From NCBI GenBank assembly GCA_002731795.1, contig PCCQ01000045.1, positions 1-44,399 on the forward strand: a stretch of 44,399 nucleotides of DNA, in the 5' to 3' direction. This document shows, in pieces, positions 2,029 through 18,524 of the stretch (within the stretch, counting starts at the first letter, position 1; every line of letters starts with the position of its first letter). Origin of the DNA: Fidelibacterota bacterium. Its GTDB lineage: Bacteria > Fidelibacterota > Marinisomatia > SCGC-AAA003-L08 > D37C17. The notes under the pieces are model-generated. The model saw nothing but the letters and a program-made list of their open reading frames with translations. It was not told where the DNA came from and did not search any database. Made by a program: the position numbers and the translations under genes.

Positions 2029-2460
2029 TTGAAAAAGTCAATTAAAAAATATTTTAACGGTTTTACTCTTGTTGAAATTCTTATCGTTGTAGTAATTGTA
2101 GGAATTTTGGCTGCAATCGCAATACCAACCTATTATAGTTATGTCCGAAAAGGCTATGCCACAGAAGCGAAAACTCAAATGAAAAATATTGTACAAGCTT
2201 CAGAAATATATAAAATGGAAAATGATAGTTACCCACCTGATTGCTGGGAGACTCTCAAAGAAGAAGATTACCTCGAAATAAAAAAATCAATTACAAAAAA
2301 ATGGGAATTTGAATGCTCATTCGATGAGGATGGAGAGGGTGGAACCCTATCTGCTACAAGTACCGAAGAAATGGGCGGTGGCGGAGGAAAGAAAATTGAA
2401 TATAATAAAGAAACCGGAAAGTATACAGGTTACGGTCAATCTAATTCAGGTGGAGAGTAA
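2029..2460 (+). CDS. pilA: Type IV major pilin (prepilin with class III signal peptide)
   Basis: TTG start after a strong SD. The leader MKKSIKKYFNG is followed by FTLVEILIVVVIVGILAAIAIP, the G|FTLxE N-methylation motif with Glu5. The globular part has two Cys, and the C-terminal tail is Gly-rich (GGGGGKK...SNSGGE). Confidence 0.85.
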   Translation: MKKSIKKYFNGFTLVEILIVVVIVGILAAIAIPTYYSYVRKGYATEAKTQMKNIVQASEIYKMENDSYPPDCWETLKEEDYLEIKKSITKKWEFECSFDEDGEGGTLSATSTEEMGGGGGKKIEYNKETGKYTGYGQSNSGGE

Positions 2461-2469
2461 ATACTTACA

Positions 2470-3528
2470 ATGTCATTTTCAATAAAAGAATTACTTAAAT
2501 ATGCTTTGGATAGTGGCGCATCTGATTTGCACCTCAGCGTAGGAAATATCCCCATGCTGAGGATTCATGGTGAAATGAAAAAAATCAAATCACCTGAACT
2601 TGATTTAAAATCTATGGAAAGTATTAGAGATGAGATATTAAATTCAAACCAAAAGCAAATTTTCAAAGAAGGTTTAGAAATTGACTTTTCAGCTGAACTT
2701 AAAGACAAAGGTAGATTTAGAGTTAATTTTTTTAATCAAATAAACGGACTATCTGCTGTTTTCAGAACTATTTCCAATGATATCAAAAGTTCAGAGGAAC
2801 TAGGTATCCCTCCTTTAGTAAATAGTTTAGCCATGAAGGATAGAGGGCTTATTCTTCTCACCGGACCTACTGGAAGTGGAAAGTCAACTACACTAGCTGC
2901 AATGATTGACCATATCAATGAAAATAGAAATTGCCATATTATAACTATTGAAGATCCTGTTGAATACTACCATACTTCTAAAAATTGTCTTATAAATCAA
3001 AGAGAAGTAGGCCATTCTACTCACTCGTTTGCGAATGCACTAAGGTCAGCTTTAAGAGAAGATCCAGATGTAATCCTGGTTGGTGAAATGCGAGATTTAG
3101 AAACCATACAATTAGCATTAACAGCTGCTGAAACTGGACATTTAGTATTGTCAACTCTCCATACATCAAGTGCTGTCAAAACAGTAGATAGAGTAATAGA
3201 TGTGTTCCCATCTGGCCAAAAGTCTCAAATAAGGTCAATGCTTTCAGAGAGTTTAGTTGCGATAATTGCTCAAAAATTACTACAAAATAAAGAAGGAAAC
3301 GGAAGAATTCCAGCTAGTGAAATGATGATTGCAAACTCTGCTATAAGAAATTTAATAAGAGAAGATAAGATCTACCAAATACCTTCACTAATTCAAGCTG
3401 GCAGTCAAGAAGGAATGCATACACTTGACCAAGATTTACAGCGACTGCTATCCCAGGGTGTAATCAATAGAGAAGATGCACTTCAAATCGCAGAAGATCC
3501 TGACAACTTTCAAAAAGGTATTTTCTAA
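2470..3528 (+). CDS. pilT: Twitching-motility retraction ATPase PilT
   Basis: 352 aa. Walker A GPTGSGKST, Walker B/Asp box DPDVILVGEMRD, His box TGHLVLSTLHT, and the PilT-specific AIRNLIRE motif (AIRNLIREDKIYQI). Confidence 0.9.
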   Translation: MSFSIKELLKYALDSGASDLHLSVGNIPMLRIHGEMKKIKSPELDLKSMESIRDEILNSNQKQIFKEGLEIDFSAELKDKGRFRVNFFNQINGLSAVFRTISNDIKSSEELGIPPLVNSLAMKDRGLILLTGPTGSGKSTTLAAMIDHINENRNCHIITIEDPVEYYHTSKNCLINQREVGHSTHSFANALRSALREDPDVILVGEMRDLETIQLALTAAETGHLVLSTLHTSSAVKTVDRVIDVFPSGQKSQIRSMLSESLVAIIAQKLLQNKEGNGRIPASEMMIANSAIRNLIREDKIYQIPSLIQAGSQEGMHTLDQDLQRLLSQGVINREDALQIAEDPDNFQKGIF

Positions 3529-3533
3529 TTTAA

Positions 3534-3959
3534 ATGTCAAAATTTAAATTATTTCAAGGCTTTACTTTGACAGAGCTTCTTGTAGGAATTTTATTCTCAA
3601 CCATTACAGCTTCTGCTGTAATAAGTGGCTCAATTTATGTAAAAAAAACACTTAATAATATCCAATATAAAGAGTTGGCTTTTGAAAAATTAAAAGGACA
3701 TACAGAATTTTGGAAAGGGCGTATAGCTGCTAAGGATATACCTACCAACCTTTCAGATTGTGAAGAAAATGTATGTTTAAAAGAGAATGAAGATGAGGAT
3801 TGTATATTCAAAGCTACCGAATTGTGTTATGAAATGAATAGTGTAAACACTGAAGATTCAAATGCTAAGAGATGGGAGTTAACCACTACAATCAATTGGG
3901 AAAATAGTAATCAAGGAGAGAGGGATTTAAGTTTTTATGTTATTCAAATGGAATTTTAA
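3534..3959 (+). CDS. Minor pilin / pseudopilin (GspI/PilV-like size class)
   Basis: N-terminus MSKFKLFQG|FTLTELLVGILF is a prepilin cleavage/methylation motif with Glu5. 141 aa with four Cys. Confidence 0.7.
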   Translation: MSKFKLFQGFTLTELLVGILFSTITASAVISGSIYVKKTLNNIQYKELAFEKLKGHTEFWKGRIAAKDIPTNLSDCEENVCLKENEDEDCIFKATELCYEMNSVNTEDSNAKRWELTTTINWENSNQGERDLSFYVIQMEF

Positions 3960-4575
3960 ATCTAAGAAATACAAAATAAGTACTAATCAAGGTTTCACTT
4001 TGGTTGAAGTAATGGCTGCTATAATTATTTCTTTGTCTGTTTTTTGGGGAATAATGAACTTGTATGTTGATATTGTAAAAAATCAGGTTAAAGATCAAAC
4101 AATGGCTGATATTAGATTTAATTTATCCTCAGCTATGGATATGATTTCTCGTGATGTGAGGAATGCTGATTCAATTAGTATTAGTACAACTACATACTCA
4201 AAAAAAATTGACCTATATAATTTTGATAGAAATGGCGACATTGAAGAACTACATTCATATAGTGCAAAAAATGATTTAGGGATTTTATACAATGATGAAC
4301 CGATAATCATACCGGGTCGACATTTATTTAATAATGAAGGTTCATATGAAATAACAATTGAAGATTTTGACTGTAAATTAGCTCTAAATGTGTACAATAC
4401 TTCAAAAAGGAATTTAAGAGATAATTTTTTTGACCTGACTGTTGAGTTTAAAGTTAAATCAAACAGCGATAATGACTTTGAGAAAATTTATACATTTGAG
4501 CAACAAATATTTGCATTGAATCAATTTTCTATAACTAAATCTGATGATGATGATGATGAATCGCAAGATATATAG
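3937..4575 (+). CDS. Minor pilin / pseudopilin (GspJ/PilW-like)
   Basis: Leader ...STNQG|FTLVEVMAAIIISL has Glu5. ISRDVRNADSISI resembles the PilW/GspJ block. It overlaps the upstream gene by 23 nt, and GAGAGGGA lies upstream of the ATG. Confidence 0.65.
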   Translation: MLFKWNFKSKKYKISTNQGFTLVEVMAAIIISLSVFWGIMNLYVDIVKNQVKDQTMADIRFNLSSAMDMISRDVRNADSISISTTTYSKKIDLYNFDRNGDIEELHSYSAKNDLGILYNDEPIIIPGRHLFNNEGSYEITIEDFDCKLALNVYNTSKRNLRDNFFDLTVEFKVKSNSDNDFEKIYTFEQQIFALNQFSITKSDDDDDESQDI

Positions 4576-6846
4576 ATGATTAAGAACACAAAAATAGAAC
4601 AACATTCTAAAAAATTTTATAGTGGTTTTATACTACCTACTTCATTATTTTTTATGTTTGCAAGCGCTTCAGTAATTATGGTTTATTATAATTGGCTAAG
4701 CAACCAACTTAATGAACTAGATTATAGAATTGCTGTAACCAAAGCTACTTATAATGCAGAAAGTGGAATTGCTGAAAAGGCATTCCCCTACTTATTGCAA
4801 AGCAACTATGTCACTGGCACAGTTTTAGAAGGACGCTCTCTTGATGTTGAGGAAATTGGTTTAAAGATGGGTAGTTATAGAGAAGTAACGATGACTAAAA
4901 ATAATTTATATAATGAACGAATTGGATCCGCAATTGGCTTAGCTACTTGGGGACCTAATAATTCAGATACCATATTTAGAAAATCTGAAATTGTTGGTAG
5001 TCCTGAGGGTTTAGGAAAGTATATGTATTTTACAAATACTGAAAGAGCTGGAGGTGCACCCATGACTTTTGGACCTCCTGGATTTGTAAATGGAGAAAGA
5101 AGAGGTGTAAAGTTTTATGGATCAGATGTCATTGATGGAATAGTTCAAACCAATGATGAAATTTATTTTTCTGATACAGGTTGTCCAGATTTTAGTGAAG
5201 CTGAGTGGTATTTAACACCCGGAAATAATGGTCCGGCAAATGGTAATTGGGGTGGGTGCTCCGGCAATGGTTGGAATGCACTTTTCTCTCCCCAAGAGGT
5301 TGACACAAGTACAAGATGTGAATTAAAATGGCCTCCACCTGGATATGAGAATATGAAACAAGGTAATGCTGACTCTCAATTAAGAATTATCCCTGCAGGA
5401 ATAATAAACAGAGGTGGAAATGGAGCAAAAGACACATTAACCATGACAGAAATTGAGTTTTTTAATACTGGAGAATATATGGTTACTCAGTGGTGGTTTT
5501 TACCTCCTCCCCATTTGAAATCTGGATTAAGCTCAACTCAAGTTATAAACCCTTATCCACAGCATTTAGATGGTTTTAATGAACTATGTAATTCTATTGC
5601 TGGATGTAACCCAGCAACTTTTAACTATAATGATGATAAAGCTGCAGGTTTTCCAATTCTTGATCAAATTTGTGTATCCCCTACCGAAACTGGAGACCCT
5701 ACAGTGCAAGATATTTCAATTTATGGATGCAAGCCATATCTTGATTCTCTTATGTCATATCATGGTAAATACATGATACCAAATAATATTTATGATAATC
5801 CTCAAATTGAATCATTAATGGATCCGTTTTCAGGTAATGGGCCGTATTTTGATGATCCAGAATGTCCTCCAGGTGAGAACTGCTATCCTTTTGGACCTCA
5901 TGGTATAGCAGGTCAACACTTTGATTTTGAGCATAACATTGATAATCCAAATAATCCTAATTTACCAATAAATACTCTTCCTTATCCAGGAGCTCCTCCA
6001 TATATTTATAATTCACAAGGAGTAATTTATGTTGAAGATGGTCCTGTAAGGGTCAAAGGAAATTATAAAGGTAGATATTCAATTGTTACCGATCCTTATA
6101 CACTTTACAGAAGACATGCATGCAATGATAGTATTTTAAATTGCAACACAGAGCTTGATACAATGTGGAATAATATTTGGATTATAGATGATTTAGTAAA
6201 TGCTGACACAGATGGTAGTGGAAATATGGCTCTTCATCAACCAAACTTAGAGACTTGTAGGGGTGGTAGCAATAATGTATTAGGGCTAGTTTCTGGAGCA
6301 AACATTGTAGTCGCAAATACTCCCGAAAATGGGGCAAACAATGGTTGCCCTAGTGGTAATTGCCCCTACCCTACTTCTTCACATGGAGTTAGAATTAATG
6401 CACACATGATTGCACTAAATGAATCTTTTGTAGCTCATTATTGGCAGAATTCTTCAAATTCTATACCAACTAACCCAGGATGGGTAGGTAATATTTATGA
6501 TCCATATTTTACCCCTAACGATGAATTTGATAGGGATACTGGATTTCCTCCGTGGGCAGATGGAAGAGGAAGAAATACAGCAAATGGAACTGGTGGCAGC
6601 GATAGAAGAGGCACCATTTTACTTTGGGGTGGTGTATGTCAAAGATATAGAGGATATGTTCAAAGAAATCCTACAAGTCAATATGGAAATCAATTATGGG
6701 TAGGTTATCAAATTAAAGATTATAACTATGATGATAACTTATTGTGCGGAGGGCCTCCTGCATACCCTGTTGTAGAATGTAAAGGTGGAAATGGAGAAAT
6801 TTCAATTAATATAGTTTCAGCAAAAACATCAAAAGGACTAGAATAA
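4576..6846 (+). CDS. Giant pseudopilin-like protein (GspK/PilX-like N-terminus lacking Glu5) with ~700-aa Cys/Gly/Pro/Asn/Trp-rich domain of unknown family
   Basis: N-terminus ...KKFYSG|FILPTSLFFMFASASVIMVYYNW is a pilin-like hydrophobic helix with Thr at +5. It sits third in the pseudopilin series. I recognise no catalytic motif. Confidence 0.5.
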   Translation: MIKNTKIEQHSKKFYSGFILPTSLFFMFASASVIMVYYNWLSNQLNELDYRIAVTKATYNAESGIAEKAFPYLLQSNYVTGTVLEGRSLDVEEIGLKMGSYREVTMTKNNLYNERIGSAIGLATWGPNNSDTIFRKSEIVGSPEGLGKYMYFTNTERAGGAPMTFGPPGFVNGERRGVKFYGSDVIDGIVQTNDEIYFSDTGCPDFSEAEWYLTPGNNGPANGNWGGCSGNGWNALFSPQEVDTSTRCELKWPPPGYENMKQGNADSQLRIIPAGIINRGGNGAKDTLTMTEIEFFNTGEYMVTQWWFLPPPHLKSGLSSTQVINPYPQHLDGFNELCNSIAGCNPATFNYNDDKAAGFPILDQICVSPTETGDPTVQDISIYGCKPYLDSLMSYHGKYMIPNNIYDNPQIESLMDPFSGNGPYFDDPECPPGENCYPFGPHGIAGQHFDFEHNIDNPNNPNLPINTLPYPGAPPYIYNSQGVIYVEDGPVRVKGNYKGRYSIVTDPYTLYRRHACNDSILNCNTELDTMWNNIWIIDDLVNADTDGSGNMALHQPNLETCRGGSNNVLGLVSGANIVVANTPENGANNGCPSGNCPYPTSSHGVRINAHMIALNESFVAHYWQNSSNSIPTNPGWVGNIYDPYFTPNDEFDRDTGFPPWADGRGRNTANGTGGSDRRGTILLWGGVCQRYRGYVQRNPTSQYGNQLWVGYQIKDYNYDDNLLCGGPPAYPVVECKGGNGEISINIVSAKTSKGLE

Positions 6847-7898
6847 TGTCAATTAGTATTGATATAGGAACAAGTGAAGTTAAACTAGTAGAATTAAACA
6901 CAGTAAATGATGATGCTGTCGTATCAAAAGTGCACTCCAAATCAACATGGAGTGACTTAAATTCTTTTGATCCTGAAAAATTAGAAAAATCTAATTGGGT
7001 GGCATGTATTAATGATATCTGTATAGATACTAAAACTAATACTAAGAAAATTAAATCTTTGACAACTGCAATATCTGGTAAAAATTTATCTGTAAAAGAA
7101 ATTACCACTCTCGAAATGAATGAAGATGAATTATATCAATCATTAGAGTTTGAAGCAAAAAAACATATTCCCTTAGATGGAACTGAGGCTGTAATGGATT
7201 ATTCTATTATTGGTAAAAATAATAACGAAATAGATAAAATTGATGTTTTACTAGTTGCTACTACAAAAAATATAATCAAACAATTTGATTCTATAGTAAG
7301 AGATTCTGGATTTAAAAATTCAATTTTTGATGCAGAACCTATTGCTATGGCTAATTGCTTGACTCATAATTATGGTATCCAAGAAGATGGAATAGATGTC
7401 ATTTTAGATATAGGAACTAGCACTTCTACTCTTGTTGTTTTTGGTAAATCACAGACATTTTTTACAAGAGAAATAGAAACTTCAGGTTTTACTATTATAA
7501 AAGATATAATGAAAAAATATGACACTGATTATTCTGATGCAAAGGATATACTTGAAAGAGATGGGGTTAAATCTTTAGATAGCAATTCAATCGGAAGTGA
7601 TAGTAATGCATTTAGTCTAGAATCTGCTGAAAAAACTATTTTTAGCAACCTAGTTGACGAAATAAGAAAGTCTCTACGATATTATGTTAAATCAAATAAT
7701 GGAAATTCAAATTTTAAACGATTATTTATTTCGGGGGGCTTTGCTGAAATAAATGGTCTTAAAGATTTAATAGCTGATGAACTTCGAATAGAAACTGAGA
7801 TACTAAACCCATTCAATAAAATAGTAAGTGATGTGAAGATTGAAAACCCATCAAAATTTACTGTTGCTGTTGGATTAGCGTTAAGGGGAATGATGTAA
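6846..7898 (+). CDS. pilM: Type IV pilus assembly protein PilM (actin-like ATPase fold)
   Basis: MSISIDIGTSEVKLVEL phosphate-1-like start, a second DIGTSTSTLVVF block, 350 aa, and position upstream of pilN. TAATG stop/start overlap with the upstream gene. Confidence 0.8.
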   Translation: MSISIDIGTSEVKLVELNTVNDDAVVSKVHSKSTWSDLNSFDPEKLEKSNWVACINDICIDTKTNTKKIKSLTTAISGKNLSVKEITTLEMNEDELYQSLEFEAKKHIPLDGTEAVMDYSIIGKNNNEIDKIDVLLVATTKNIIKQFDSIVRDSGFKNSIFDAEPIAMANCLTHNYGIQEDGIDVILDIGTSTSTLVVFGKSQTFFTREIETSGFTIIKDIMKKYDTDYSDAKDILERDGVKSLDSNSIGSDSNAFSLESAEKTIFSNLVDEIRKSLRYYVKSNNGNSNFKRLFISGGFAEINGLKDLIADELRIETEILNPFNKIVSDVKIENPSKFTVAVGLALRGMM

Positions 7899-9146
7899 TT
7901 GAAGAATGATAATTTCATATTAATAAATCTAAATCAAAATATTAGTAAAGCTAGGCAGGCTGCCTATAAAGGTAACAGAGATAAATGGATTATATTTGGA
8001 TTACTATGTTTTATATATATTGGTCTTATTGCTTGGTTTGTGAATATAAATTCAAACTACAATGAGCTTATTAGTCTTCGAGAAGACACAATAAGTAAAA
8101 TTAAAAAAGATACAAGAGATTTAAAGAAAGAAATTAAAAGGCAGCTCGAAAATAGAAATAAAAATCTAAATGAAGATAATAATGATAAAGTCAACCTATT
8201 AAACCTATCTAAAAAAGATATAGAATTAGCATATAAAATTGGTGAAAAAACTATTCCTTGGTCAGAAAAACTAATGCAATTATCTGAAATTACTCCTGAG
8301 GATATGTGTATAACAAAGTTAGAATACGCTAATAATAGTTTAAATATTTCTGCTATATCTAAAATAAAAGACAAGACGCAAAAAGACCAAAAAATACTCA
8401 ATGATTTTATAACTCTGCTCGAAGGTCATGAAGATTTTGGTAAAGAATTTATAGAATACGAACTTAGAAATAGTAAAAGAGTATCAAGGGGTAGTAATCC
8501 GTACTATCAATTCCAAATTTCTGCTCCACTAAAGAAGAAAATCAAAAATAGACTTAATGATATTGTTATTGAAGAAGAAATTCCTAAAAATATAGAGCCT
8601 ATTATTGAAGAAAAGGTTGAAGCTAAGGTTACGGAAAAGGTTGAAGTGAAGGTTGAAGAAGAGCTTGAGGAAAAGGTTGAACCTAAAGTCGAAGAAAATA
8701 AATATTCAGATGATATAATTCAATTAGCTAAAGATATTGATATAAAAGATCCTTTAACCGACAACGTGAAAAAATTTCAAACAGTTCTTAAACTTTTTTC
8801 AGAAAATGATATTGAGTTTGGTTTCCTAGAGTCTGTGACAATTATAAAAAGAGATGAAATTCTAGGTAAAAAGCCAACATCAAGATTTCAAAAAGAGTTG
8901 ATGAAAAAAAATAAGGAAATTGCTTCTGAACAATCATCAATTAAGGTACGTAAATATTCAAAAAATATAATTGCTGCTGCCAAACGCTTAAAAAAGAACC
9001 AAAACAAATCTAATCTTGTTGCAGTTAAACGATTCCAAGAAGCGACAGGCATAGCAAATGAAAGCAGCGCTAATTATGGACTTTGGGATGACTTAACACG
9101 CATTAAATATGAAGATGTTTTACAATCAATAGCGGAAAAACAATGA
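7899..9146 (+). CDS. pilN: PilN-like inner-membrane pilus alignment protein with ~200-aa C-terminal extension
   Basis: TTG start directly after the pilM TAA. N-terminal ILINLNQ resembles the INLLP PilM-binding motif. A single TM helix (WIIFGLLCFIYIGLIAWFV) is followed by a coiled coil and a PilN-like core. The extension carries (E/x)KVE repeats and two related ~55-aa modules. Confidence 0.6.
   Translation: MKNDNFILINLNQNISKARQAAYKGNRDKWIIFGLLCFIYIGLIAWFVNINSNYNELISLREDTISKIKKDTRDLKKEIKRQLENRNKNLNEDNNDKVNLLNLSKKDIELAYKIGEKTIPWSEKLMQLSEITPEDMCITKLEYANNSLNISAISKIKDKTQKDQKILNDFITLLEGHEDFGKEFIEYELRNSKRVSRGSNPYYQFQISAPLKKKIKNRLNDIVIEEEIPKNIEPIIEEKVEAKVTEKVEVKVEEELEEKVEPKVEENKYSDDIIQLAKDIDIKDPLTDNVKKFQTVLKLFSENDIEFGFLESVTIIKRDEILGKKPTSRFQKELMKKNKEIASEQSSIKVRKYSKNIIAAAKRLKKNQNKSNLVAVKRFQEATGIANESSANYGLWDDLTRIKYEDVLQSIAEKQ
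8607..8696 (+). repeat. In-frame tandem 12-nt repeat (GAAAAGGTTGAA-like, ~7.5 copies) encoding EEKVEAKVTEKVEVKVEEELEEKVEPKVEE
   Basis: Read directly from the sequence. Units are gaaaaggttgaa / gctaaggttacg / gaaaaggttgaa / gtgaaggttgaa / gaagagcttgag / gaaaaggttgaa / cctaaagtcgaa. Confidence 0.8.
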
Positions 9147-9694
9147 AAAGAAATATTATTTTATTTAGTATCACAATTTTATTCATTCTAATAATGACAA
9201 CACTTTGGTCTTTTGTGTTAACTGATAAGTATGATCAAATTATTGATCTTGAAGATAGTCAAAAAGAGGCAAATGAAAAATTTATTACAACCCAGATTTT
9301 ATCTGATAGTTTGTACTATGTGTATAATATGTTTGAAAAGAATCTTGCTCAAAGTAAAAATGATCCATTAAACAAGCAAGCATCTCGTACCTTTATTAAT
9401 GATTTAACAGATATTTTTAGTAAAATTAATATTAATGGAGTTGGAGTCAGCCCAGCTAAAAAGTATAAAAAGGGTAAATATACATATATACCTTATGAGC
9501 TTGAATTTACATGTGATTATCCCAGGTTTGGTAGATTATTAGCAGAACTATCTGCTAGCGAGCGAATTATAAAGATAGATGAATTTAAATTTATTAATAC
9601 TCCAGATCAAGTTAGGAGGTCTACAGGTGATAATAAACAATTACCTGGAGCAAAAATAACCATGACAATTTCAACTGTAACATTAAATAAATAA
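9143..9694 (+). CDS. pilO: PilO-like pilus assembly protein
   Basis: ATGA overlap with pilN, an N-terminal TM helix and a coiled coil. The C-terminal block YELEFTCDYPRFGRLLAELSASERIIKIDEFKF is typical of PilO. Confidence 0.65.
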   Translation: MKRNIILFSITILFILIMTTLWSFVLTDKYDQIIDLEDSQKEANEKFITTQILSDSLYYVYNMFEKNLAQSKNDPLNKQASRTFINDLTDIFSKININGVGVSPAKKYKKGKYTYIPYELEFTCDYPRFGRLLAELSASERIIKIDEFKFINTPDQVRRSTGDNKQLPGAKITMTISTVTLNK

Positions 9695-9698
9695 TTTT

Positions 9699-10220
9699 AT
9701 GGATAAACGAGAAAACCTACTTTGGCAAATGATACTTACAATAGCTTTTATTGCTATTGCATATGTTGGCTATTCATTATACTACGATAACGATGGATAT
9801 CTTCAGTTACTAGATGATTTTGAATCTGAAGAAATTGGTACTGATAGGCAACTAAAAGATAAAGTGCAAAAACTTGAAATTAGCTTAAAAGAAAAACAGG
9901 ACTTTATTACAGATGGTAGTGAAACAAAATACTACATCGGTCCAGAAGATAATCCTTCTAACTTATTATCAGTGATAAAACTTGAAGGATTTGAATCTAT
10001 GGCTAATCAGCACTTAAAAATAGATAATATTAGATATAGCAAAAGATACAAAGGATATAAAGCAACCTTAATTAACTCCTATGGTGATATAGTGTTTAAT
10101 TTATCTCTAAATGATACTATATCAGGTGGAAAGATTGTTGATATAGGTTCAGACTTTGTAGTTTTTGAAAAAGATAATGAAAGATTTACATACGATATGT
10201 ATAATGAGGAAGGTCAATAA
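9699..10220 (+). CDS. pilP: PilP-like pilus assembly protein (TM-anchored rather than lipoprotein)
   Basis: Position between pilO and the secretin, and an N-terminal TM helix (LWQMILTIAFIAIAYVGYSLYY). The C-terminal beta-rich block KATLINSYGDIVFNLSLNDTISGGKIVDIGSDFVVFE resembles PilP/GspC HR domains. Confidence 0.55.
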   Translation: MDKRENLLWQMILTIAFIAIAYVGYSLYYDNDGYLQLLDDFESEEIGTDRQLKDKVQKLEISLKEKQDFITDGSETKYYIGPEDNPSNLLSVIKLEGFESMANQHLKIDNIRYSKRYKGYKATLINSYGDIVFNLSLNDTISGGKIVDIGSDFVVFEKDNERFTYDMYNEEGQ

Positions 10221-11716
10221 TGAAAATAACTTATTTAGAAAAAAATAACATTTTAAAAACCATCATCCTAAATCAAATGAAAAGGACATTAATATGTTTA
10301 TTTGCTTTTTCAGGTATATTTGCTAACCCACAACTTGATGATATGGGAGAGATAACCATTAAAGCTGTAGACTCCAGTTTATCTGGAATTTTATCTATTT
10401 TAGCTGATGAGAGTGGATATAACATTGTTACTGGTCCAAATGTTAATTCATCAGAGAGAATAACTATTAATCTTGTTGATACTCCAATTGATCAAGCTAT
10501 TGATATGATAGTTCGTGCAGCTGGATTAAGCTATGAAATTCAAGGCAATTCTATTCTAATTGCAAATGCAGATCGATTAAACAGTGATGTTGGAATAAGT
10601 TCTCATGTGATTCCACTAAAATATGCAAACGCTGAGGATGTTGTTGGCTTACTAGCAAATATTACCGAAAAGATTACAGTTGATAAAGCAGGTAATAATT
10701 TATTAGTTACAGTAAGTCCAAAGAAATTAGCTGAAATTCAAACTATAATAGAAGAAGTAGATAAACCTGCAATTCAAATAATGCTTGAGGCTAAGCTTAT
10801 TGAAGTTGCTTTATCTAATGAAGATAAGGAAGGTATTGATTGGGCTAAACTATCTGAGTTAACAACTATTATTGCTGAAAGTGGTGTTCCTCTTCAACTT
10901 GATACCGGAGGTGAAACTGCTTCTTTACTTCCAGGGAGCTCATTTTCTACTTCAACTGAGGGCTTAGTTACTGAAACTCTTACTCCACAAGCATTTCAGC
11001 AACTTCCGTCTGAAATGTATTTTCAAAGAATAACTGGCAAGAATGCTGGATTCAGTAGACAGTTAACCGCATTTGAAGTTACTTTAGACTTCTTGATGAA
11101 AAATAATAGAGCAGATATATTGACAAATTCTCAAGTCGTAACATTGAATGGTCATGAGGCCACAATTTCTATGGTTGATGTAGTACCTTACATTTTATCT
11201 AGTGGAGGACTTGGTGGGCAAGTTCAAGTTCAAAGAGAAGAGATAGGTATAAAATTACATATCCTACCTACTGTAAATACAGATGGATACATAACAACAT
11301 CAGTTAGACCTGAAGTAAGTTCTATATTTGAGTTTATTGGTCCAGATAGAAACATTCCATGGGTTAAAAAAAGGCAATCTACGACAACAATTAGGGTAAT
11401 GGATAATGAATCAATAATAATAGGTGGTCTTCTATCTCTTGACAAAAAAAAGGTTGAGCATCGCGTCCCTTTCTTTTCAAGTATTCCGTTTATTGGCGAA
11501 CGTTTTTTTAGACATAGTTCTGAAATTGAATCAAAAACTGACCTTGTAATACAAATTACTCCCAAAATCATTTATGATAATTACAGCGGCATTAACAAAA
11601 ATCCTTTTCACATTGAGACTGAAAATAAATCTATAACTTATGGCTTAGATGTGGATGATAATAAAAGTGCTAAAAAGAAAACTAAAAAGTCCGACAAAAA
11701 GAAAAAGGAAAAGTAA
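10220..11716 (+). CDS. pilQ: Secretin (PilQ/GspD family) outer-membrane channel
   Basis: Secretin C-domain blocks ILTNSQVVTLNGHEATISMVDVVPY, IGIKLHILPTVNTDGYIT and VPFFSSIPFIGERFFRHSSEIESKTDLVIQITPKII, with an N0/N1-like N-terminus. The true start may be Met20 (10277, MKRTLICLFAFSGIFA signal). No AMIN domain is evident, and the tail is Lys-rich. Confidence 0.88.
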   Translation: MKITYLEKNNILKTIILNQMKRTLICLFAFSGIFANPQLDDMGEITIKAVDSSLSGILSILADESGYNIVTGPNVNSSERITINLVDTPIDQAIDMIVRAAGLSYEIQGNSILIANADRLNSDVGISSHVIPLKYANAEDVVGLLANITEKITVDKAGNNLLVTVSPKKLAEIQTIIEEVDKPAIQIMLEAKLIEVALSNEDKEGIDWAKLSELTTIIAESGVPLQLDTGGETASLLPGSSFSTSTEGLVTETLTPQAFQQLPSEMYFQRITGKNAGFSRQLTAFEVTLDFLMKNNRADILTNSQVVTLNGHEATISMVDVVPYILSSGGLGGQVQVQREEIGIKLHILPTVNTDGYITTSVRPEVSSIFEFIGPDRNIPWVKKRQSTTTIRVMDNESIIIGGLLSLDKKKVEHRVPFFSSIPFIGERFFRHSSEIESKTDLVIQITPKIIYDNYSGINKNPFHIETENKSITYGLDVDDNKSAKKKTKKSDKKKKEK

Positions 11717-11719
11717 TCT

Positions 11720-14700: not shown

Positions 14701-14806
14701 ACAGTATACATGTACTAGCCCAACTATTTTTGCAAATCTTGTAAATCCAAATGGTGCTCAAAGTGATGAAGTAAGTGTAACACTGCTAAGTACTTGTACA
14801 GATTAA
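11720..14806 (+). CDS. Large acidic lipoprotein with ~7 Ig-like (Big_1-like) modules and two EF-hand/dockerin-like Ca-binding loops; function unknown
   Basis: Lipobox LIFSLS|C. Recurring ~100-aa modules have the pattern xDxxGNPVxxxxVxF ... G.A.VTYT...G...LTAYV. Loops are DVDDLDGDGSTSD (13727-13765) and DINGNGEYDDGEE (14474-14512). There are many paired Cys. Confidence 0.55.
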   Translation: MKSINYSNYKVLLIYIFLLIFSLSCDNSEPVSAENPNLIYTISVQTEVRNCHLLNCVENTTYAYDVDNPLTTDYHLYFQIEILDSDDEPVEGAEINVQECILTGGDSSSCESTTSSFAYFDGGSSTTNSEGILEGYWKDNGESGLFNVTFSYTDQYETINQTTEQITVNSLSDFINLSVTTSTSEVFSDNTNVTYQTTISARVLNEYNSSMPNIPILFNLLTDGVGSLDNSLAYTSDTGEPASAVYTIEPASIPGLSSNNVDVVFSISVFNEDIAETLEATYPVSGGQEPEYDIAEFYFYPNYESIPHDQYDNTEISVIAKNQAGVGISNVLVRFALDAEQRGSNGEISHEFEYTCCENSDSDSTIVEGQNGVASVTYTNIQGGNDILTAYVLDPFTSEILTDSEGNQIGTDNITIVNNEACPNCDEDLRLVASNYLLPDSNGLESTDVYAFYTDSLGNPPALNSFMTFSAIQTDPDNDGEWLEAGSLNPENGLFVSAQAGELDDPIFNSFPDDTTIVYAKTTFNAETASGLVKVVGLYEGLTDTLGVQISSSYAHSVSITPPFPSVISVQGSPTDESTVLEAVITDAFGNNVTEPYITRWKLTNETVLGGVHLDGNENLSDAYSISTLGVSNITVNSGQVPASVAMNLEVHPYSVLETIENADELDALDVDDLDGDGSTSDRLYEPICSAYSVPLTVASGPATSGIIGYSFLEAENIGGGLTEMPVSIMLWDTWANPVVDSTSVYFTLNPENLAEIGAEAKTNNVKPGGDPDSDHWPGVAWTTITYNSAQLHEVPEILGYTTGSFCADSLSSYEECAELELEWLTSQQIVVSSFANPVDYENVCVDCSLSLLPLSDTQVDWACPANPNPNNDIFEVILRAQLLDFYGVPVQGSNVELIYTGSQGAPTVEAILNLCYFDINGNGEYDDGEEQVDSETGEPLTQEQCDATTVLTWGQAFILEPPSNQVLTDEDGNKYFRITFNHNECTLTASDPEQYTCTSPTIFANLVNPNGAQSDEVSVTLLSTCTD

Positions 14807-14824: not shown

Positions 14825-16543
14825 ATGAGTTATAATCCACAATTTGCAAAACTTGGTGAGATTTTAGTTAATGAAAACATGATAACTGAAGAACAGTTAA
14901 ATCAAGCTTTAGCAGAACAAAAAAATAAAAAAGGTAAACTTGGAAATATTCTTATTGCAAGTGGAACAATCACAGAAGATGATTTGGTAAAAGCATTTTC
15001 TCTTCAGCTTGGAAGTAAGTCTATTAGTGAAGATGAACTTTTAAAAGCTCCTGAAGAAACTGTAAAGCTTTTAGCTGAAGATTTTGCAAAAGAAAATAAT
15101 GTAATCACACTAAAGCAAACAGATAACTCGATATATGTTGCAATGGAAGACCCTGAGGATGTTGCAACAATAGATGCAATAAAAAAGCTCACTAATTTAA
15201 ATCCTGAAATTCTAGTTGCAGGAAAAACTGCTATAAGCAATGCTATTGAAACTTTATATGAAAGAGTTAAAAAATCTGGAGAAGTTGAAAGTGCTATTTC
15301 CAATATAAAGGTAATACCTGGAAGTGAGGACGATGGTGATGAACTTGATTTAGTTGAAGAAAAAGTTTCTGCTAAAGATGCTCCATTTGTAAAATTAGTT
15401 AACCTAATTTTAACAGAAGCAATTAAAGAAGATTCATCTGATATACATATAGAACCTGGTAGGGATGAAGTGAATGTCAGAATAAGAGTTGATGGAGTTT
15501 TAATTAGAATAATGACCCCCCCTGCTTCCTCTCTTAATGGTATAGTAACAAGGATTAAAATTCTTTCAAAACTTAACATTGCTGAACATAGATTGCCACA
15601 AGACGGTAGAATGAAAATCAAAACATCCTCTAGAGACATCGATGTAAGGGTTTCTATACTACCTACAGTTCATGGTGAAAAAGTTGTTCTTAGATTACTT
15701 GGAAGTGGAAAGTTATCTCTTAATCTTAGCAATCTTGGTTTTGAAGAAAAAAAATTAACTACATTTAAAAAATGGATAAATCAACCATACGGAATGATAA
15801 TTATATCTGGACCAACTGGTAGTGGTAAATCGACAACATTGTATGCAGCCCTTCAAGAAATACATTCAGAAGGAATTAATATAACAACAGTTGAAGATCC
15901 AGTGGAATACCAATTACCAGGAATAAATCAAGTGCAAATGCATGATGAGATTGGGTTGAACTTTGCTGCATCATTAAGATCTATTCTTAGACAAGACCCA
16001 GATGTGTTATTAATTGGTGAGATAAGAGATGAAGAAACTGCAAACATAGCTGTTAAATTTTCTATGACTGGTCACTTAGTATTCAGTACTGTTCATGCTA
16101 ATGATGCTACATCAACAATCGCTAGGCTTCTTGATTTAGGAATTCCTCCTTTCTTGCTCGGTTCTTCATTAAATCTTGTAATGGCACAAAGACTTGTAAG
16201 AACAATTGATAAAGATAATAAAGAAAACTATACGCCTACAAAAGATGAGTTAGATCTAATATCTTTCCCAAAAGATAAACAAAAATCTACAAAGTTTTTT
16301 AGAGGAACTCCTAGTAGAGACAATCATAATACTGGATATAAAGGTCGAACTGCGATTCATGAAATTCTAGAAGTTGATAATCCTATGAAAAAATTAATTT
16401 TTGATGGTGCGAATCAAAATGAAATTAAAAAAGAAGCTATTAAAAATGGAATGACGCCTCTAAGAGATGCTGGAATCTCAAAAATCGTTAGTGGCGATAC
16501 AACTATTGATGAAGTCCTAAGAGCAACTGTAGAAGATATTTAA
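14825..16543 (+). CDS. pilB: Type IV pilus extension ATPase PilB (GspE family)
   Basis: 572 aa with a T2SSE_N-like N-terminus. Walker A GPTGSGKST, Asp box, Walker B DPDVLLIGEIRD, His box TGHLVFSTVHAND, and the TGYKGRTAIHEIL block. The ORF contains no cysteine. Confidence 0.9.
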   Translation: MSYNPQFAKLGEILVNENMITEEQLNQALAEQKNKKGKLGNILIASGTITEDDLVKAFSLQLGSKSISEDELLKAPEETVKLLAEDFAKENNVITLKQTDNSIYVAMEDPEDVATIDAIKKLTNLNPEILVAGKTAISNAIETLYERVKKSGEVESAISNIKVIPGSEDDGDELDLVEEKVSAKDAPFVKLVNLILTEAIKEDSSDIHIEPGRDEVNVRIRVDGVLIRIMTPPASSLNGIVTRIKILSKLNIAEHRLPQDGRMKIKTSSRDIDVRVSILPTVHGEKVVLRLLGSGKLSLNLSNLGFEEKKLTTFKKWINQPYGMIIISGPTGSGKSTTLYAALQEIHSEGINITTVEDPVEYQLPGINQVQMHDEIGLNFAASLRSILRQDPDVLLIGEIRDEETANIAVKFSMTGHLVFSTVHANDATSTIARLLDLGIPPFLLGSSLNLVMAQRLVRTIDKDNKENYTPTKDELDLISFPKDKQKSTKFFRGTPSRDNHNTGYKGRTAIHEILEVDNPMKKLIFDGANQNEIKKEAIKNGMTPLRDAGISKIVSGDTTIDEVLRATVEDI

Positions 16544-17787
16544 TGCCTTCATACGAATATATTGTAAGAACTCAAGATGGTAAGCGGCTTGAAGGAAAAA
16601 TAGAAGCTGAGAACTTAAATCGTGCAAACGAAAAACTTGAAGAAAAAAAATTTACAATTGTAAAGTTAAAAGAGAATGAAGTAGCATTTGACTTTCTGGG
16701 ACCATTTCTAGATAGATTAAATCTAGAAATGGAAAAATTTAAAAATCGAATTCCATTATCAACTCTTGTTTTCTTTACTCGTCAATTATCAACAATGTTT
16801 TCAGCTGGACTTACACTAGAAAAATCTATTTTTTTTCTATCACAAGAAGAAAAAAATAAAAAATTCAAGAAGATACTTGGTGATTTAGATCAAAATATAA
16901 AAAGAGGAATGCTTTTATCAGATACACTTGAACGACATCCAGGTGTTTTTTCAAATCTTTTTATATCAATGGTAAGAGCAGGAGAAGTAAGCGGTAAATT
17001 ATCAGAAACCCTTGAAGAATTAGCTGAATATCTTGAGACTGTAGAAGAAACACAAAGAAAAGTTAAGTCAGCAATGTATTACCCCGTCTTTATAATTGGA
17101 TTTCTTGTGGTTACTTTATTTTTAACATTCACATATCTAATCCCTAGTTTTTCGGATGTTTATGACCAATTAGGATCAGAGCTTCCATATTATACTGTAC
17201 TTATGGTAAATATAGGAGAATGGCTTCAAGCGAATGTATTTTTTGTTTTATTATCAAGTTTTACATCTTTGGCTACAATATGGATGGCAACACTTACTGA
17301 TTCAGGTAAATTATTAAAAGATAGAATGCTACTTAGGATTCCAATATTTGGTAAGATAATAAAAGATAATATCCTAAGTAAATTCTCAAAGACTTTTGGT
17401 ATACTTGTTAATGCAGGAGTACCAATTATAGATACTCTAAATTTAGTTAAAAAGGTGGTTGATAATAGAGTTTATGAACTTGCCACAATTGAAGCATCAA
17501 CAAATATTGAAAATGGTGCAAATATATCTCAAGCACTTAAAAATACTGGAGAATTCCCGTCCGTAATGATACAATTGTTATCTACTGGAGAAGAAACTGG
17601 AGAAATTGACACTCTATCACTCAAGGCTTCAGAATTCTATACTAAGCAAGTAAATGCCAGTGTTGATAGACTTACTTCAATAATTGAGCCATTATTAATT
17701 ATTTTAGTAGGAGGAGTTATTGGAATAATTGTTGTTGCCACATATTTGCCAATTTTCCACTTTGGTACTGCTTTATCAGACTATTAA
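16543..17787 (+). CDS. pilC: Type IV pilus inner-membrane platform protein PilC (GspF family)
   Basis: 414 aa with duplicated GspF-type domains (FTRQLSTMFSAGLTLEKSI and FSKTFGILVNAGVPIIDTL) and three TM segments. TAATG overlap with pilB. Confidence 0.88.
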   Translation: MPSYEYIVRTQDGKRLEGKIEAENLNRANEKLEEKKFTIVKLKENEVAFDFLGPFLDRLNLEMEKFKNRIPLSTLVFFTRQLSTMFSAGLTLEKSIFFLSQEEKNKKFKKILGDLDQNIKRGMLLSDTLERHPGVFSNLFISMVRAGEVSGKLSETLEELAEYLETVEETQRKVKSAMYYPVFIIGFLVVTLFLTFTYLIPSFSDVYDQLGSELPYYTVLMVNIGEWLQANVFFVLLSSFTSLATIWMATLTDSGKLLKDRMLLRIPIFGKIIKDNILSKFSKTFGILVNAGVPIIDTLNLVKKVVDNRVYELATIEASTNIENGANISQALKNTGEFPSVMIQLLSTGEETGEIDTLSLKASEFYTKQVNASVDRLTSIIEPLLIILVGGVIGIIVVATYLPIFHFGTALSDY

Positions 17788-18524
17788 TGATTTTATCTTT
17801 TATTGCTGGATCAATAATTGGTAGTTTCCTTAATGTTGTAATTTTTAGAACACCTCAAAACCTATCAATAATATCCCCTCGGTCACACTGTCCGAAATGT
17901 AAAAGTTTTATCCCGTTTTATTATAATATACCAATAGTTAGTTTCATATTTTTAGGTGGAAAATGTAAACAATGCAATGAAAAAATTTCTTGGCAATATA
18001 TAAGCGTAGAAATTATTACTGGTATACTATTTGTTTTTTCTTTTTCTAAATTCTCACTAAGTGAAGCAATTTTACTTAACGTAGTTTTTTGCTGCTTAAT
18101 CATTATAAGCTATATTGATTTTCATTACTTATTAATTCCATCAATATATTTATACTTATTAATTTTTCTTCTAATTCCTTATACGTATATAACAACTCAG
18201 AGTCCGTATCAAACTATTTTAGGTGCTGTGGCAATTACAACTTATTTAGCTATATGCACACTGATTGTTGGAATAATTAAAAGAGATATAAATATTTTAG
18301 GGTTTGGCGATATTCTGCTTATTATTTTTATTGGTGGATGGCTTGGAATTATCCACTCATTTATTAGTTTGTTTCTTGCAGCGATTATAGGGATTTTATA
18401 TATAATAATAAATAATCATTTAATTAAGAATGAAACAATTAAGATTCCGTTTGGAACATGCTTATCTATTTCATTTACTATAATTACAATTTTAAAAGAG
18501 TATACAAAGCTACTTACTTTTTAA
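17787..18524 (+). CDS. pilD: Prepilin peptidase / N-methyltransferase PilD (peptidase A24)
   Basis: CPKC...CKQC cysteine pairs in the first cytoplasmic loop. Catalytic Asp contexts ISYIDFHYLLIP and GFGDILLIIFIGGWLG. Polytopic membrane protein. TAATG overlap with pilC. Confidence 0.88.
   Translation: MILSFIAGSIIGSFLNVVIFRTPQNLSIISPRSHCPKCKSFIPFYYNIPIVSFIFLGGKCKQCNEKISWQYISVEIITGILFVFSFSKFSLSEAILLNVVFCCLIIISYIDFHYLLIPSIYLYLLIFLLIPYTYITTQSPYQTILGAVAITTYLAICTLIVGIIKRDINILGFGDILLIIFIGGWLGIIHSFISLFLAAIIGILYIIINNHLIKNETIKIPFGTCLSISFTIITILKEYTKLLTF

Follow-up and report, generated by a model that had tools for sequence, protein, structure and literature searches.

The tip adhesin PilY1 is exported by the Sec pathway, carries a C-terminal beta-propeller (Neisseria_PilC) and donates its strand in trans, and for GspK it is established that the Glu5-less subunit is the topmost one. 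GspK/XcpX, a member of the I-J-K tip complex of the type II secretion system (T2SS), provides its terminal strand in cis and bears an alpha-helical insert of ~180 aa in the middle of the sheet (Korotkov & Hol 2008, as cited in PMC7248040 and PMC13533445), and the PilI-J-K gene order is almost invariably syntenic (PMC13533445). For ComZ of Thermus thermophilus, a protein of 554 aa with a crystal structure, it has been argued that the tip is the only place in the pilus where it fits (PMC6561018). In cyanobacterial PilX of the HpsA-related PilX-EPS subfamily, a bulky module precedes the C-terminal strand, and a function as a tip 'plug' or adhesin has been proposed (bioRxiv 10.64898/2026.02.12.705559). 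CpaL/TadG of the Tad (type IVc) pilus, ~600 aa in length, joins a pilin domain, a large middle adhesin and a C-terminal strand that adds to the pilin sheet, and in Caulobacter this strand of CpaL is needed for piliation (PMC13533445; PMC11870444). Here we analysed a DNA stretch of 44,399 nucleotides from a Fidelibacterota bacterium, hereafter the window, in which a 756-aa protein probably acts as the tip or initiator pilin, functionally of the PilK/GspK class, and has an inserted module of adhesin-like character ahead of its last beta-strand. Related loci belong to Marinisomatota (SAR406), an abundant and essentially uncultured group of the dark ocean, and we know of no mechanism for the attachment of SAR406 to particles.

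The pilus operon and its third minor-pilin slot

The pilus genes of the window are as follows.

2029..2460, forward strand: candidate major pilin of 143 aa, G↓FTLVE (N_methyl, 32.9 bits; GspG/PilA-type matches)
2470..3528, forward strand: PilT retraction ATPase (TIGR01420, 485.7 bits, cutoff 319.1)
3534..3959, forward strand: minor pilin of 141 aa, G↓FTLTE, tentatively in the I slot (hhalign to E. coli GspI, prob 91, mainly over the N-terminal helix)
3937..4575, forward strand: minor pilin of 212 aa, G↓FTLVE, tentatively in the J slot (N_methyl; HpsC at 3.8e-9, sub-threshold)
4576..6846, forward strand: Glu5-less pilin-like protein of 756 aa with a large inserted module (ORF list, homologues, conserved K slot of the pilus operon)
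6846..11716, forward strand: pilM, a pilN-like gene, pilO, a 173-aa gene and the pilQ secretin (Pfam, NCBIfam)
14825..18524, forward strand: pilB with an MshEN c-di-GMP domain, pilC and the pilD prepilin peptidase/methylase (family matches)

Judged by these matches, the locus is a complete type IVa pilus (T4aP) operon encoding a retractable machine, with PilT and PilMNO(P)Q, and not a T2SS; PilM scored above its family cutoff, and the 173-aa gene lies in the PilP position without a family match. The prepilins of the window comprise only three canonical ones with G↓F-T-L-x-E, plus the 756-aa protein. Tentatively, the 141-aa and 212-aa pilins could be placed in the I and J slots, an assignment based on size, gene order and matches mostly over the generic N-terminal helix; for the 212-aa pilin, ComGF and GspJ matches were sub-threshold, and the hhalign match to GspJ (prob 87) covered the N-terminal helix only.

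The 756-aa ORF starts with ATG, spans exactly 4576..6846 on the forward strand and fills the third slot after these two canonical G↓FTLxE minor pilins, the genes overlapping or abutting; it is translationally coupled on both sides, the junction being TAGATG towards the preceding gene and TAATG towards pilM. A gene order running from the pilin and PilT through two minor pilins and the large gene to PilM was found in related Marinisomatota loci with readable flanks, being the same in L001-L004 and in the distant DUF4900-type relatives L074 and L075, and the third slot is kept in ~60 species-level Marinisomatota genomes. The neighbourhood with two smaller pseudopilins, to which the initial annotation had drawn attention, is thus kept in related and in more distant loci. 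The ORF is a real gene and not a chance reading frame, since one database protein is 99 % identical, 17 more homologues reach down to 33 % identity, a profile search retrieved 959 relatives, and 69 loci with the family were found in species-representative genomes. A second, word-indexed homologue search with a 60-sequence profile gained one fragment and nothing else, and Rfam and tRNA scans of the window returned no matches. None of the 18 close homologues has a meaningful public label, and a cluster look-up of 10 distant superfamily representatives gave 'hypothetical protein' or no name, except for one 'pseudopilin PulG'.

Compared with the 12 other ORFs of the window, residues 76-756 are rich in Gly (11.9 vs 6.0 %), Pro (8.2 vs 3.6 %), Asn (10.3 vs 6.6 %), Trp (2.1 vs 0.9 %) and Cys (2.5 vs 0.8 %), in agreement with the composition first described, and the strings quoted with it (GGCSGNGW, CPSGNCPYP, IYVEDGPVRVKGNYKGRYSIVTD, LGLVSGANIVVANT and VRINAHMIALNESF) are all found in the protein. 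Of its 17 Cys, alignment columns showed two, C203 and C228, to be invariant and seven others to be largely conserved; the pI is 4.4-5.3 throughout the family, and aromatic residues amount to ~12 %.

N-terminus and family searches

Along the 756-aa protein, the following parts were delimited.

4576..4626, forward strand: basic leader, aa 1-17, ending in KKFYSG, with a putative prepilin-peptidase cut after Gly17 (Gly in 57/58 aligned relatives)
4627..4794, forward strand: alpha-1 helix, aa 18-73, with the hydrophobic N-terminal half FILPTSLFFMFASASVIMVYYNW and Thr at +5 (AF2 helix 19-73, column counts)
4795..5010, forward strand: predicted pilin-like beta-sheet, aa 74-145, with strands 100-109, 114-125 and 131-143 (AF2, pLDDT ~90)
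5011..6780, forward strand: core module, aa 146-735, pI 4.6, 17 Cys (HMM domain boundaries in classes A and B)
5020..5220, forward strand: start of the core, YMYFTNTE...F..D...G.VQTND, which matches Pfam DUF4900 in distant relatives (sub-threshold DUF4900 matches)
6001..6726, forward strand: beta-rich C-terminal half of the core, aa 476-717 (AF2 strand pattern, invariant columns)
6187..6225, forward strand: DDLxNxD, aa 538-544, followed by a variable loop with DTDGSGN, aa 544-550 (column-by-column conservation)
6805..6831, forward strand: C-terminal amphipathic beta-strand, aa 744-752 (EISINIVSA), candidate cis 'C-beta' (AF2 strand, pLDDT ~92)

The protein begins with MIKNTKIEQHSKKFYSG↓FILPTSLFFMFASASVIMVYYNW, in which Thr occupies +5 and ~22 hydrophobic residues follow Gly17, and its leader resembles the KKYFNG↓F of the major pilin. 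In the aligned class-A relatives, which share the pilin-like head, Gly occupies position -1 in 57 of 58, positions -2 to -5 are K/R-rich, and the +5 residue is T, I, L, A, N, V or F and never E or D by column counts. The conserved Gly and the constant absence of an acidic +5 residue therefore support, at the level of sequence, a Glu5-less prepilin-type signal, kept throughout 60 diverse relatives, and not a chance resemblance. Further along the helix, which AF2 predicted as one continuous element from 19 to 73 (pLDDT >90), the class-A relatives conserve A53-x3-A57-x-Y59-x-A61-E62-x-G64, a motif-level likeness (A..A.Y.AE.G) to PilX.

The same region could also be read as the signal peptide of an ordinary Sec-secreted soluble protein that signal peptidase I would cut at ASA↓S (aa 29-32), since the window sequence has a positively charged n-region, a run of 11 hydrophobic residues and A-S-A. 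However, the A-x-A is not kept in the homologues (FMISSLT, FTIMSFW, FIGVSTG and others), on which ground this site was rejected, the hydrophobic stretch runs past ASA within the unbroken AF2 helix, and the true Sec-type relatives (class B, below) have no such 145-aa head; this reading is extremely improbable.

Searches against Pfam and NCBIfam with the 756-aa protein, with its 17 close homologues and with a set of 60 diverse relatives returned nothing above chance; chance-level NCBIfam matches (E >= 0.036) occurred in four of the 60 relatives and none in the window protein, and weak matches to Glyco_hydro_53 and Peptidase_M57 (E 0.05-0.09) were taken as noise. A PDB sequence search with the family profile gave zero matches at E<=10. 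E. coli GspK itself reads G↓VALLI, has no Glu5 and possesses a C-terminal strand, and hhalign detected no relation to it (prob 0.3). PilX_N (PF14341) did not match the window protein or the 17 close homologues, the best score in the family being that of one distant member (E 0.099, 13.1 bits vs the cutoff of 25.5), and no PilY1/PilC family match was obtained on the 756-aa protein or the scanned operon proteins of the 44-kb window. These results bear out the initial view that the protein fits no family. The GspK/PilX-class N-terminus proposed at the same time was upheld in its Gly at -1 and its non-acidic +5 residue and not in any detectable homology to GspK or PilX_N, and the suggested link of the large domain to PilY1 found no family match and no significant structural neighbour.

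Since pilin-family homology does not extend beyond the motif level, the N-terminus might instead be an uncleaved signal-anchor, and the protein an inner-membrane-tethered periplasmic assembly or alignment factor outside the pilus; the location of the gene directly upstream of pilMNO(P)Q, in translational coupling to pilM, would suit such a factor, and bringing a module of ~65 kDa through the secretin is not trivial. Against this, a signal-anchor would have no need for a near-invariant Gly between the basic and hydrophobic stretches, nor for a PilX/GspK-like helix motif, and the head co-occurs with the C-terminal strand. The core is an extracellular cargo module of type IX secretion (T9SS) in paralogues and hence works outside the cell, and ComZ, of comparable bulk, has been argued to be tip-located (PMC6561018). 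We consider the signal-anchor distinctly unlikely and favour the tip pilin.

The core module and its predicted structure

The family falls into two architectures. In class A, a pilin-like head precedes the core, and a short C-terminal tail with an amphipathic terminal strand follows it; in class B, the same core is combined with a Sec signal and type IX secretion sorting domains. Class-B proteins are without the entire 145-aa head, begin at the core (HMM ~132-148) and leave off at HMM ~659-666, where other domains take the place of the terminal strand, and from these boundaries it follows that head and tail co-occur and that the core is a self-contained insert. The class-B domains include Por_Secre_tail (44 and 32 bits, above cutoff), cohesin/dockerin, LRR, Chlam_PMP, PEGA and Fib_succ_major.

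By profile comparison, the core is transitively related to proteins with Pfam DUF4900 (PF16241, uncharacterised), which is carried by distant superfamily members in the same operon slot. These members scored 16-27 bits, with sub-threshold matches in 12/42 and a best score of 27.1 bits vs the cutoff of 29.4, and L074 has three tandem genes with precomputed DUF4900 matches. The window protein gave no DUF4900 match in Pfam at the gathering threshold of 29.4 bits, and its relation is transitive because it goes through the 959-relative profile only. The DUF4900 stretch corresponds to aa ~149-215 of the window protein; unlike the distant members, this protein and its Marinisomatota relatives reach no Pfam score, and in them the DUF4900-like start is separated from the conserved C-terminal half by ~350 additional residues. 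A literature search on DUF4900 yielded nothing relevant.

A confident AF2 model built with 60 sequences (pLDDT 81.4, pTM 0.85) has a long helix with a sheet of three strands, followed by a core rich in beta-structure and, at the end of the chain, one more strand. The head sheet (aa 74-145) is confined to class-A, that is pilus-operon, family members. In the C-terminal half of the core, which has most of the invariant residues (G495, G679, G685, R692 and G693), aa 476-717 were predicted as ~five groups of ~three short strands that may possibly form a solenoid. Foldseek searches against the PDB with a first model (pLDDT 68) and with the improved one (pLDDT 81), and against BFVD with the improved one, gave no match at E<=0.001, the best PDB match of the improved model having E 2.1. 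The core thus proved unrecognisable by both HMM and fold search, and the description 'beta-helix-like' is compatible with the modelled strand pattern and gains no significant structural match. The same pattern would suit a triangular solenoid like that of ice-binding proteins, for which Foldseek against the PDB offered nothing below E 2.1. A capsule-depolymerase tailspike, the top Foldseek match of the first, poorer model (E 0.29), fell to E 4.2 with the improved model and was rejected.

T9SS cargo often consists of hydrolases, which would favour an enzyme, such as a beta-helix glycan depolymerase or lyase, as the module on the same tip-pilin scaffold and, in the paralogues, at the cell surface. 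Moreover, E156, D184, N585, D676, R678, R692, R697 and D719 are invariant or nearly so in both architectures, the strand pattern would allow a solenoid, a fold that has frequently been associated with enzymes cleaving glycans (PMC6561018), and the tailspike match pointed the same way. That match was not significant with either model, however, no catalytic family HMM matches the core, Gly, Pro and Phe make up the majority of the invariant positions, which suggests structural roles, and the class-B partner domains are mostly binding modules. An enzymatic module on the tip pilin therefore seems quite unlikely, and a binding module is preferred.

A Ca-binding loop had been proposed at DTDGSGN (aa 544-550, nt 6205-6225). 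Four of its 7 positions vary even among 15 aligned relatives, with positions 545-548 varying freely, and only DDLxNxD (538-544) and G549 are conserved around it; the loop was rejected, as its sequence is not conserved among the aligned relatives.

The terminal strand is a candidate for completing the pilin sheet in cis. Mean-field DCA was performed on 56 full-length class-A sequences (Neff 29), a depth too shallow for contact prediction; the top pairs were phylogenetic cliques, and the sole signal, weak but consistent, came from a targeted register test. In this test, the best of 954 registers for aa 742-750 was antiparallel with 135-143, at a z of 3.6 that is barely above the chance maximum for 954 trials, and in the reciprocal test the tail 736-742 was among the two segments best coupled to 131-146 (Neff 29).

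Comparison with described tip subunits and a proposed mechanism

In common with GspK, the 756-aa protein carries a Gly at -1, lacks Glu5, is the largest product in an I-J-K gene order and has a predicted terminal strand that would be supplied in cis; in contrast to GspK, its machine is a T4aP and not a T2SS, and hhalign found no relation. With CpaL it shares a layout of pilin-like N-terminal domain, large middle region and extreme C-terminal strand, which here too may return to the sheet, but neither machine (Tad vs T4aP) nor sequence, the middle regions being unrelated. Like cyanobacterial PilX, it is probably a minor pilin of the PilX slot with a bulky module ahead of the C-terminal strand, in a phylum apparently without PilY1, and HpsC is the best curated match of the neighbouring 212-aa pilin (3.8e-9, sub-threshold), whereas the window protein and 59 aligned relatives match no curated family above chance. 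With PilY1/PilC it would have in common the proposed role of a large disulfide-containing tip adhesin by which pilus assembly is also licensed, via a C-terminal beta-strand; it differs in its prepilin-type head, the missing PilY1/PilC match and the non-conserved Ca loop, and it has its own terminal strand in the AF2 model, with no PilY1/PilC match within the 44-kb window. The statement that it exceeds the known members two- to threefold in size overlooked ComZ (554 aa), CpaL (~600 aa) and cyanobacterial proteins of the PilX/HpsA type. The idea of cap and adhesin in one polypeptide agrees with the proposals made for ComZ, cyanobacterial PilX and CpaL.

ComZ is likewise a T4aP-associated pilin-like protein, of a system that lacks PilY1 as the present one apparently does, and this shared architecture class (PMC6561018) raises the reading of a DNA receptor on the tip of a competence pilus, with minimal pilins and PilT serving DNA uptake. 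The minor-pilin set of I, J and K only resembles competence pili (PMC13533445), and the major pilin came close to ComP_DUS (26.1 bits vs the cutoff of 27.3). But the 756-aa protein has no similarity to ComZ by sequence (profile vs PDB, E<=10) or among the Foldseek matches listed, and no ComEA or ComEC is present in the window. ComZ binds DNA, whereas the module of ~590 aa, for which nothing points to DNA binding, is strongly acidic (family pI 4.4-5.3), Cys-rich and common to T9SS cargo; its presence on surface proteins of the T9SS that also bear cohesin, LRR and PMP domains fits adhesion better. A DNA receptor is accordingly very improbable.

For the favoured tip pilin, anatomy, synteny and family architecture are shown directly, and the remaining steps of the mechanism are inferred. 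The preprotein would enter the inner membrane via its hydrophobic alpha-1 helix and be cut after Gly17 by the PilD of the operon. Without Glu5, the subunit would need none above it and could thus be the first and topmost one. The acidic, disulfide-rich and beta-rich module of ~590 residues (aa 146-735) would lie between the sheet (100-143) and the last strand (744-752), which would fold back in cis and complete the pilin sheet. Together with the 141-aa and 212-aa minor pilins, this K subunit would form a priming complex on PilMNO(P)/PilC, beneath which PilB would polymerise the 143-aa major pilin. The module would then ride on the pilus tip in place of the seemingly missing PilY1-type adhesin or plug and bind a putative ligand, likeliest a glycan or particle surface because paralogues exported by type IX secretion present this module at the cell surface, and PilT retraction would pull on this contact.

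Other bacteria are already known to use the design of this probable tip pilin, and the inserted module of ~590 residues is new. A further-reaching view, which we hold to be possible but rather unlikely, is that the core is a new fold used by Marinisomatota and their relatives both on the tip of a retractile pilus, as a 'grappling hook' or even a tip enzyme for the capture of marine particles or polysaccharides, and on the cell surface through T9SS, and forms a major, previously unseen attachment device of an uncultured deep-ocean phylum that ranks among the most abundant. If the tip-subunit reading is true, it provides a concrete pilus adhesin candidate for SAR406 and extends the recently proposed rule of a PilK-type fused adhesin with a cis strand in PilY1-free systems to another phylum with a different module. 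The module common to pilus tips and T9SS cargo would offer a handle for ligand finding, and DUF4900 gains a function hypothesis.

Two observations concern the secretin and its surroundings. A module of ~65 kDa would have to pass the secretin, which counts against the tip pilin. Located after the secretin gene, a conserved protein of 1028 aa likewise has a conserved beta-strand at its C-terminal end and might act in trans as a partner of the 756-aa protein.

The pilus cluster and its conserved K slot

The 756-aa protein is encoded within a complete type IVa pilus (T4aP) cluster, in which every gene lies on the + strand. At its 5′ end, TAGATG joins the stop of the upstream pilin gene directly to its ATG, and at its 3′ end its own stop overlaps the start of pilM (TAATG). 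The genes are as follows, in order.

2029-2460 (+), major pilin
2470-3528 (+), PilT (TIGR01420, 485.7 bits vs. a cutoff of 319.1)
between PilT and the 756-aa gene (+), two minor pilins of 141 aa and 212 aa, each with a canonical G|FTLxE
4576..6846 (+), the 756-aa protein (from the ORF list)
next (+), PilM, matched above cutoff
7899-9146 (+), PilN-like protein
next (+), PilO
9699-10220 (+), 173-aa gene
next (+), PilQ-type secretin
11720-14806 (+), 1028-aa protein without assignment
14825-16543 (+), PilB extension ATPase with an MshEN c-di-GMP domain
next (+), PilC and PilD

A motif scan of the 44 kb found no canonical prepilins other than the major pilin and the two minor pilins. By order, the 141-aa, 212-aa and 756-aa genes occupy the I, J and K slots, with the support for the I/J identity of the two small pilins limited to size, order and sub-threshold matches: the 141-aa pilin matched gspI (E 0.079) and the 212-aa pilin matched HpsC (3.8e-9) and gspJ, with ComGF matched in 14 of 36 orthologues of the 212-aa pilin, all below threshold. 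These matches were mostly confined to the N-terminal helix.

The window comes from a Marinisomatota bacterium, for which the best genome match was the MAG TMED161, at 94 % identity. Species-representative genomes yielded 69 related loci; those with a named phylum were all Marinisomatota (SAR406, 'Neomarinimicrobiota', Fidelibacterota) and the rest 'bacterium' MAGs; one metagenomic contig was labelled Marinisomatota_UBA8477. In the Marinisomatota loci with readable flanks, the gene order was pilin, PilT, ~150-aa pilin, ~200-aa pilin, large protein, PilM and PilN, each of the three pilins carrying the G-x-x-x-x-E prepilin motif; the exceptions were a few upstream ORFs missing the strict motif and one locus with a single minor pilin. 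The same order was observed in the related loci L001-L004 and in two distant relatives, among them L074 (metagenome contig Ga0675941_000121), where three tandem paralogues (531, 532 and 538 aa; 8001-13146) of the DUF4900-type tip-pilin candidate fill the K slot between the two minor pilins and pilM, which suggests interchangeable pilus tips. For type IV filaments, synteny of the I-J-K order has been described as almost invariable (PMC13533445).

Family, N-terminus and predicted fold

Checking the translation confirmed the N-terminus, the motifs and the DTDGSGN coordinates described in the initial annotation, and the skewed composition it had reported was also borne out: in residues 76-756, Gly, Pro and Trp are about twice as frequent as in the other window proteins, while Asn is enriched ~1.6-fold and Cys about threefold. 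Two of the 17 Cys are invariant and seven are largely conserved among the aligned relatives, and the protein is acidic (pI 4.7; family range 4.4-5.3). No family could be assigned, as had been claimed, since neither the single sequence nor the family profile found a match in Pfam, NCBIfam or PDB sequences; membership of the GspK, PilX_N, PilY1/PilC and HpsA families was not detectable by family searches and hhalign against E. coli GspK. Two other claims fared less well. The proposed Ca-binding loop DTDGSGN is not kept in relatives, in which only DDLxNxD and G549 of this region are conserved, and the supposedly unprecedented size was overstated in view of the cyanobacterial PilX/HpsA-type proteins, ComZ (554 aa) and CpaL (~600 aa). 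The gene family to which the 756-aa protein belongs is real and conserved, and lacks annotation.

The conservation of the N-terminus was read from 60 diverse relatives, aligned over their full length. Position -1 was Gly in 57 of the 58 aligned, and position +5 was never E or D but one of T, I, L, A, N, V and F, in agreement with the prepilin-like N-terminus without Glu5 noted initially. Positions -2 to -5 are K/R-rich and +2 to +12 hydrophobic, followed by a helix motif of A53 (55/60), A57 (60/60), Y59 (46), A61 (56), E62 (33, with Q in 14) and G64 (49). The leader KKFYSG|F resembles KKYFNG|F of the major pilin of the same operon, and E. coli GspK, whose sequence was read for comparison, likewise has a Glu5-less start (QRG|VALLI) and a terminal β-strand. 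Sec cleavage at A-S-A (aa 29-31) was considered and rejected, as this site is not conserved in relatives. Judged from the alignment, the N-terminus is a conserved prepilin-type signal lacking Glu5.

An AF2 model built with 18 sequences was mediocre (pLDDT 68), and that built with 60 sequences was confident (pLDDT 81.4, pTM 0.85). The model predicted a pilin-type 'lollipop' made of a helix at 19-73 and three long strands (100-109, 114-125 and 131-143), then a mixed region (149-410), a lineage-specific loop of low confidence (~410-475), a series of short strands in about five sets of about three each (476-717) and a last strand at 744-752 (pLDDT ~92). Foldseek with this model returned no neighbour in PDB (best E 2.1) or BFVD (best E 1.2). 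The recurring sets of three strands could fit the β-helix suggested initially, and also a solenoid like those of cyanobacterial PilX and ComZ.

Whether the last strand returns to the pilin sheet was assessed by mean-field DCA on 56 full-length sequences with a pilin head (class A below), a set in which noise precludes contact prediction in general (Neff 29). When all 954 registers open to aa 742-750, parallel or antiparallel, were compared at this depth, antiparallel pairing with 135-143 scored best (z 3.6), and 10 of the top 15 fell in the head (aa 1-145). Reciprocally, the tail segment 736-742 was among the two segments best coupled to 131-146 in the same shallow alignment. The covariation lends weak, if consistent, support to such a return and is not proof of it.

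One core in two protein classes and its proposed role

A profile search of 1.8 billion representatives gave 959 matches at E<=1e-3, of which 332 reached E<=1e-10, and domain boundaries divided the full-length members into two classes. Class A has the prepilin-like head (HMM 1-~135) followed by the core (aa 146-735 of the 756-aa protein) and ends at most 44 residues further, in nearly all members with an alternating-hydrophobic strand C-terminal to a conserved PPPxYP. Class B has a Sec signal peptide, enters the core at 'YxYFTDxE..GGGP' (HMM 132-148, query aa ~145), leaves it at HMM 659-666 (query aa ~731-736) and continues for 60-1400 residues, with added type IX secretion (T9SS) sorting domains, including Por_Secre_tail (44 and 32 bits, above cutoff), CHU_C and FlgD_ig, and with cohesin/dockerin, PEGA, LRR, Chlam_PMP or Fib_succ_major domains. 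Both classes occur in one MAG (bin.70), which holds a pilus-operon copy (L017) and two Sec/T9SS-type core paralogues of 828-831 aa without a pilin head (L031 and L032; JABMOW010000079.1 / 038.1). Given these two architectures, the core is a self-contained extracellular module; the head and the terminal strand occur together. Pfam DUF4900 was matched at the extreme start of the core in distant class-A members and one class-B member, with sub-threshold scores of 16-27 bits vs. a cutoff of 29.4 for the distant members and precomputed matches in L074. The 756-aa protein is ~350 residues longer than the ~500-aa DUF4900 proteins, and its link to them is transitive only. The analysis established the anatomy, conservation, synteny and modularity of the 756-aa protein.

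Two recent papers and the ComZ structure describe how, where PilC/PilY1 is absent, the system's PilK homologue has a large insertion separating the β-sheet from the C-terminal donor strand (PMC13533445; 10.64898/2026.02.12.705559; PMC6561018). In ComZ, a ~380-aa solenoid separates the last strand from the one before it (PMC6561018); for cyanobacterial PilX, it was proposed that the insert stands in for PilY1 as the 'tip plug' (10.64898/2026.02.12.705559); CpaL and further proteins share this layout, with the strand necessary for piliation (PMC13533445). The 756-aa protein fits this insertion-bearing PilK class by anatomy, synteny and family architecture, and most likely serves the T4aP of Marinisomatota as a modular pilin, either at the tip or as initiator. 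By analogy with PilK, GspK, ComZ and CpaL, it would be cut by PilD after Gly17, the sheet would be completed in cis by its own C-terminal strand, and together with the 141-aa and 212-aa pilins it may prime assembly as an I-J-K complex. Because it lacks Glu5, it would be the top subunit, carrying the core at the pilus tip, where PilT retraction would pull on any partner the core binds. The core might alternatively be enzymatic or DNA-binding; an adhesin role is favoured over both, because the paralogous module is displayed by T9SS alongside binding domains and because the core is acidic and aromatic-rich. The design principle, a large insert in a PilK-type pilin, is already known; new is the inserted module, which has no recognisable fold neighbour and would be used on both pilus tips and T9SS cargo.

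Other genes of the cluster

The major pilin candidate has a TTG start and a Gly-rich C-terminus, and its match to the ComP_DUS DNA-receptor pilin domain fell just under threshold (26.1 vs. 27.3 bits). The PilN-like protein, at 415 aa, is about twice the ~200 aa of most related loci, with EEKVE-type repeats in a low-complexity stretch rich in Lys and Glu, plus an additional C-terminal region. The 173-aa gene, in the PilP position, had zero Pfam or NCBIfam matches, and related loci keep a gene of 160-193 aa in this slot. The MshEN-type cyclic-di-GMP-binding domain of PilB is N-terminal (NF053729, 68 bits vs. a cutoff of 38) and makes control of pilus extension by c-di-GMP probable.

The sole family signal in the 1028-aa protein, directly 3′ of the secretin, was a sub-threshold Big_1. 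Its slot is kept in 24 related loci (650-1443 aa), and its relatives usually begin with a lipoprotein-like signal ('...LSC|D') and finish in a conserved strand at the very C-terminus (for example SDEVSVTLLST or SDPLEILLVRT). The 1028-aa protein may act as another adhesin on the surface or as an MshQ/PilY1-type trans β-strand donor. At the left end, a long ORF with a signal-peptide-like start (1-~1750, -) runs past the window.
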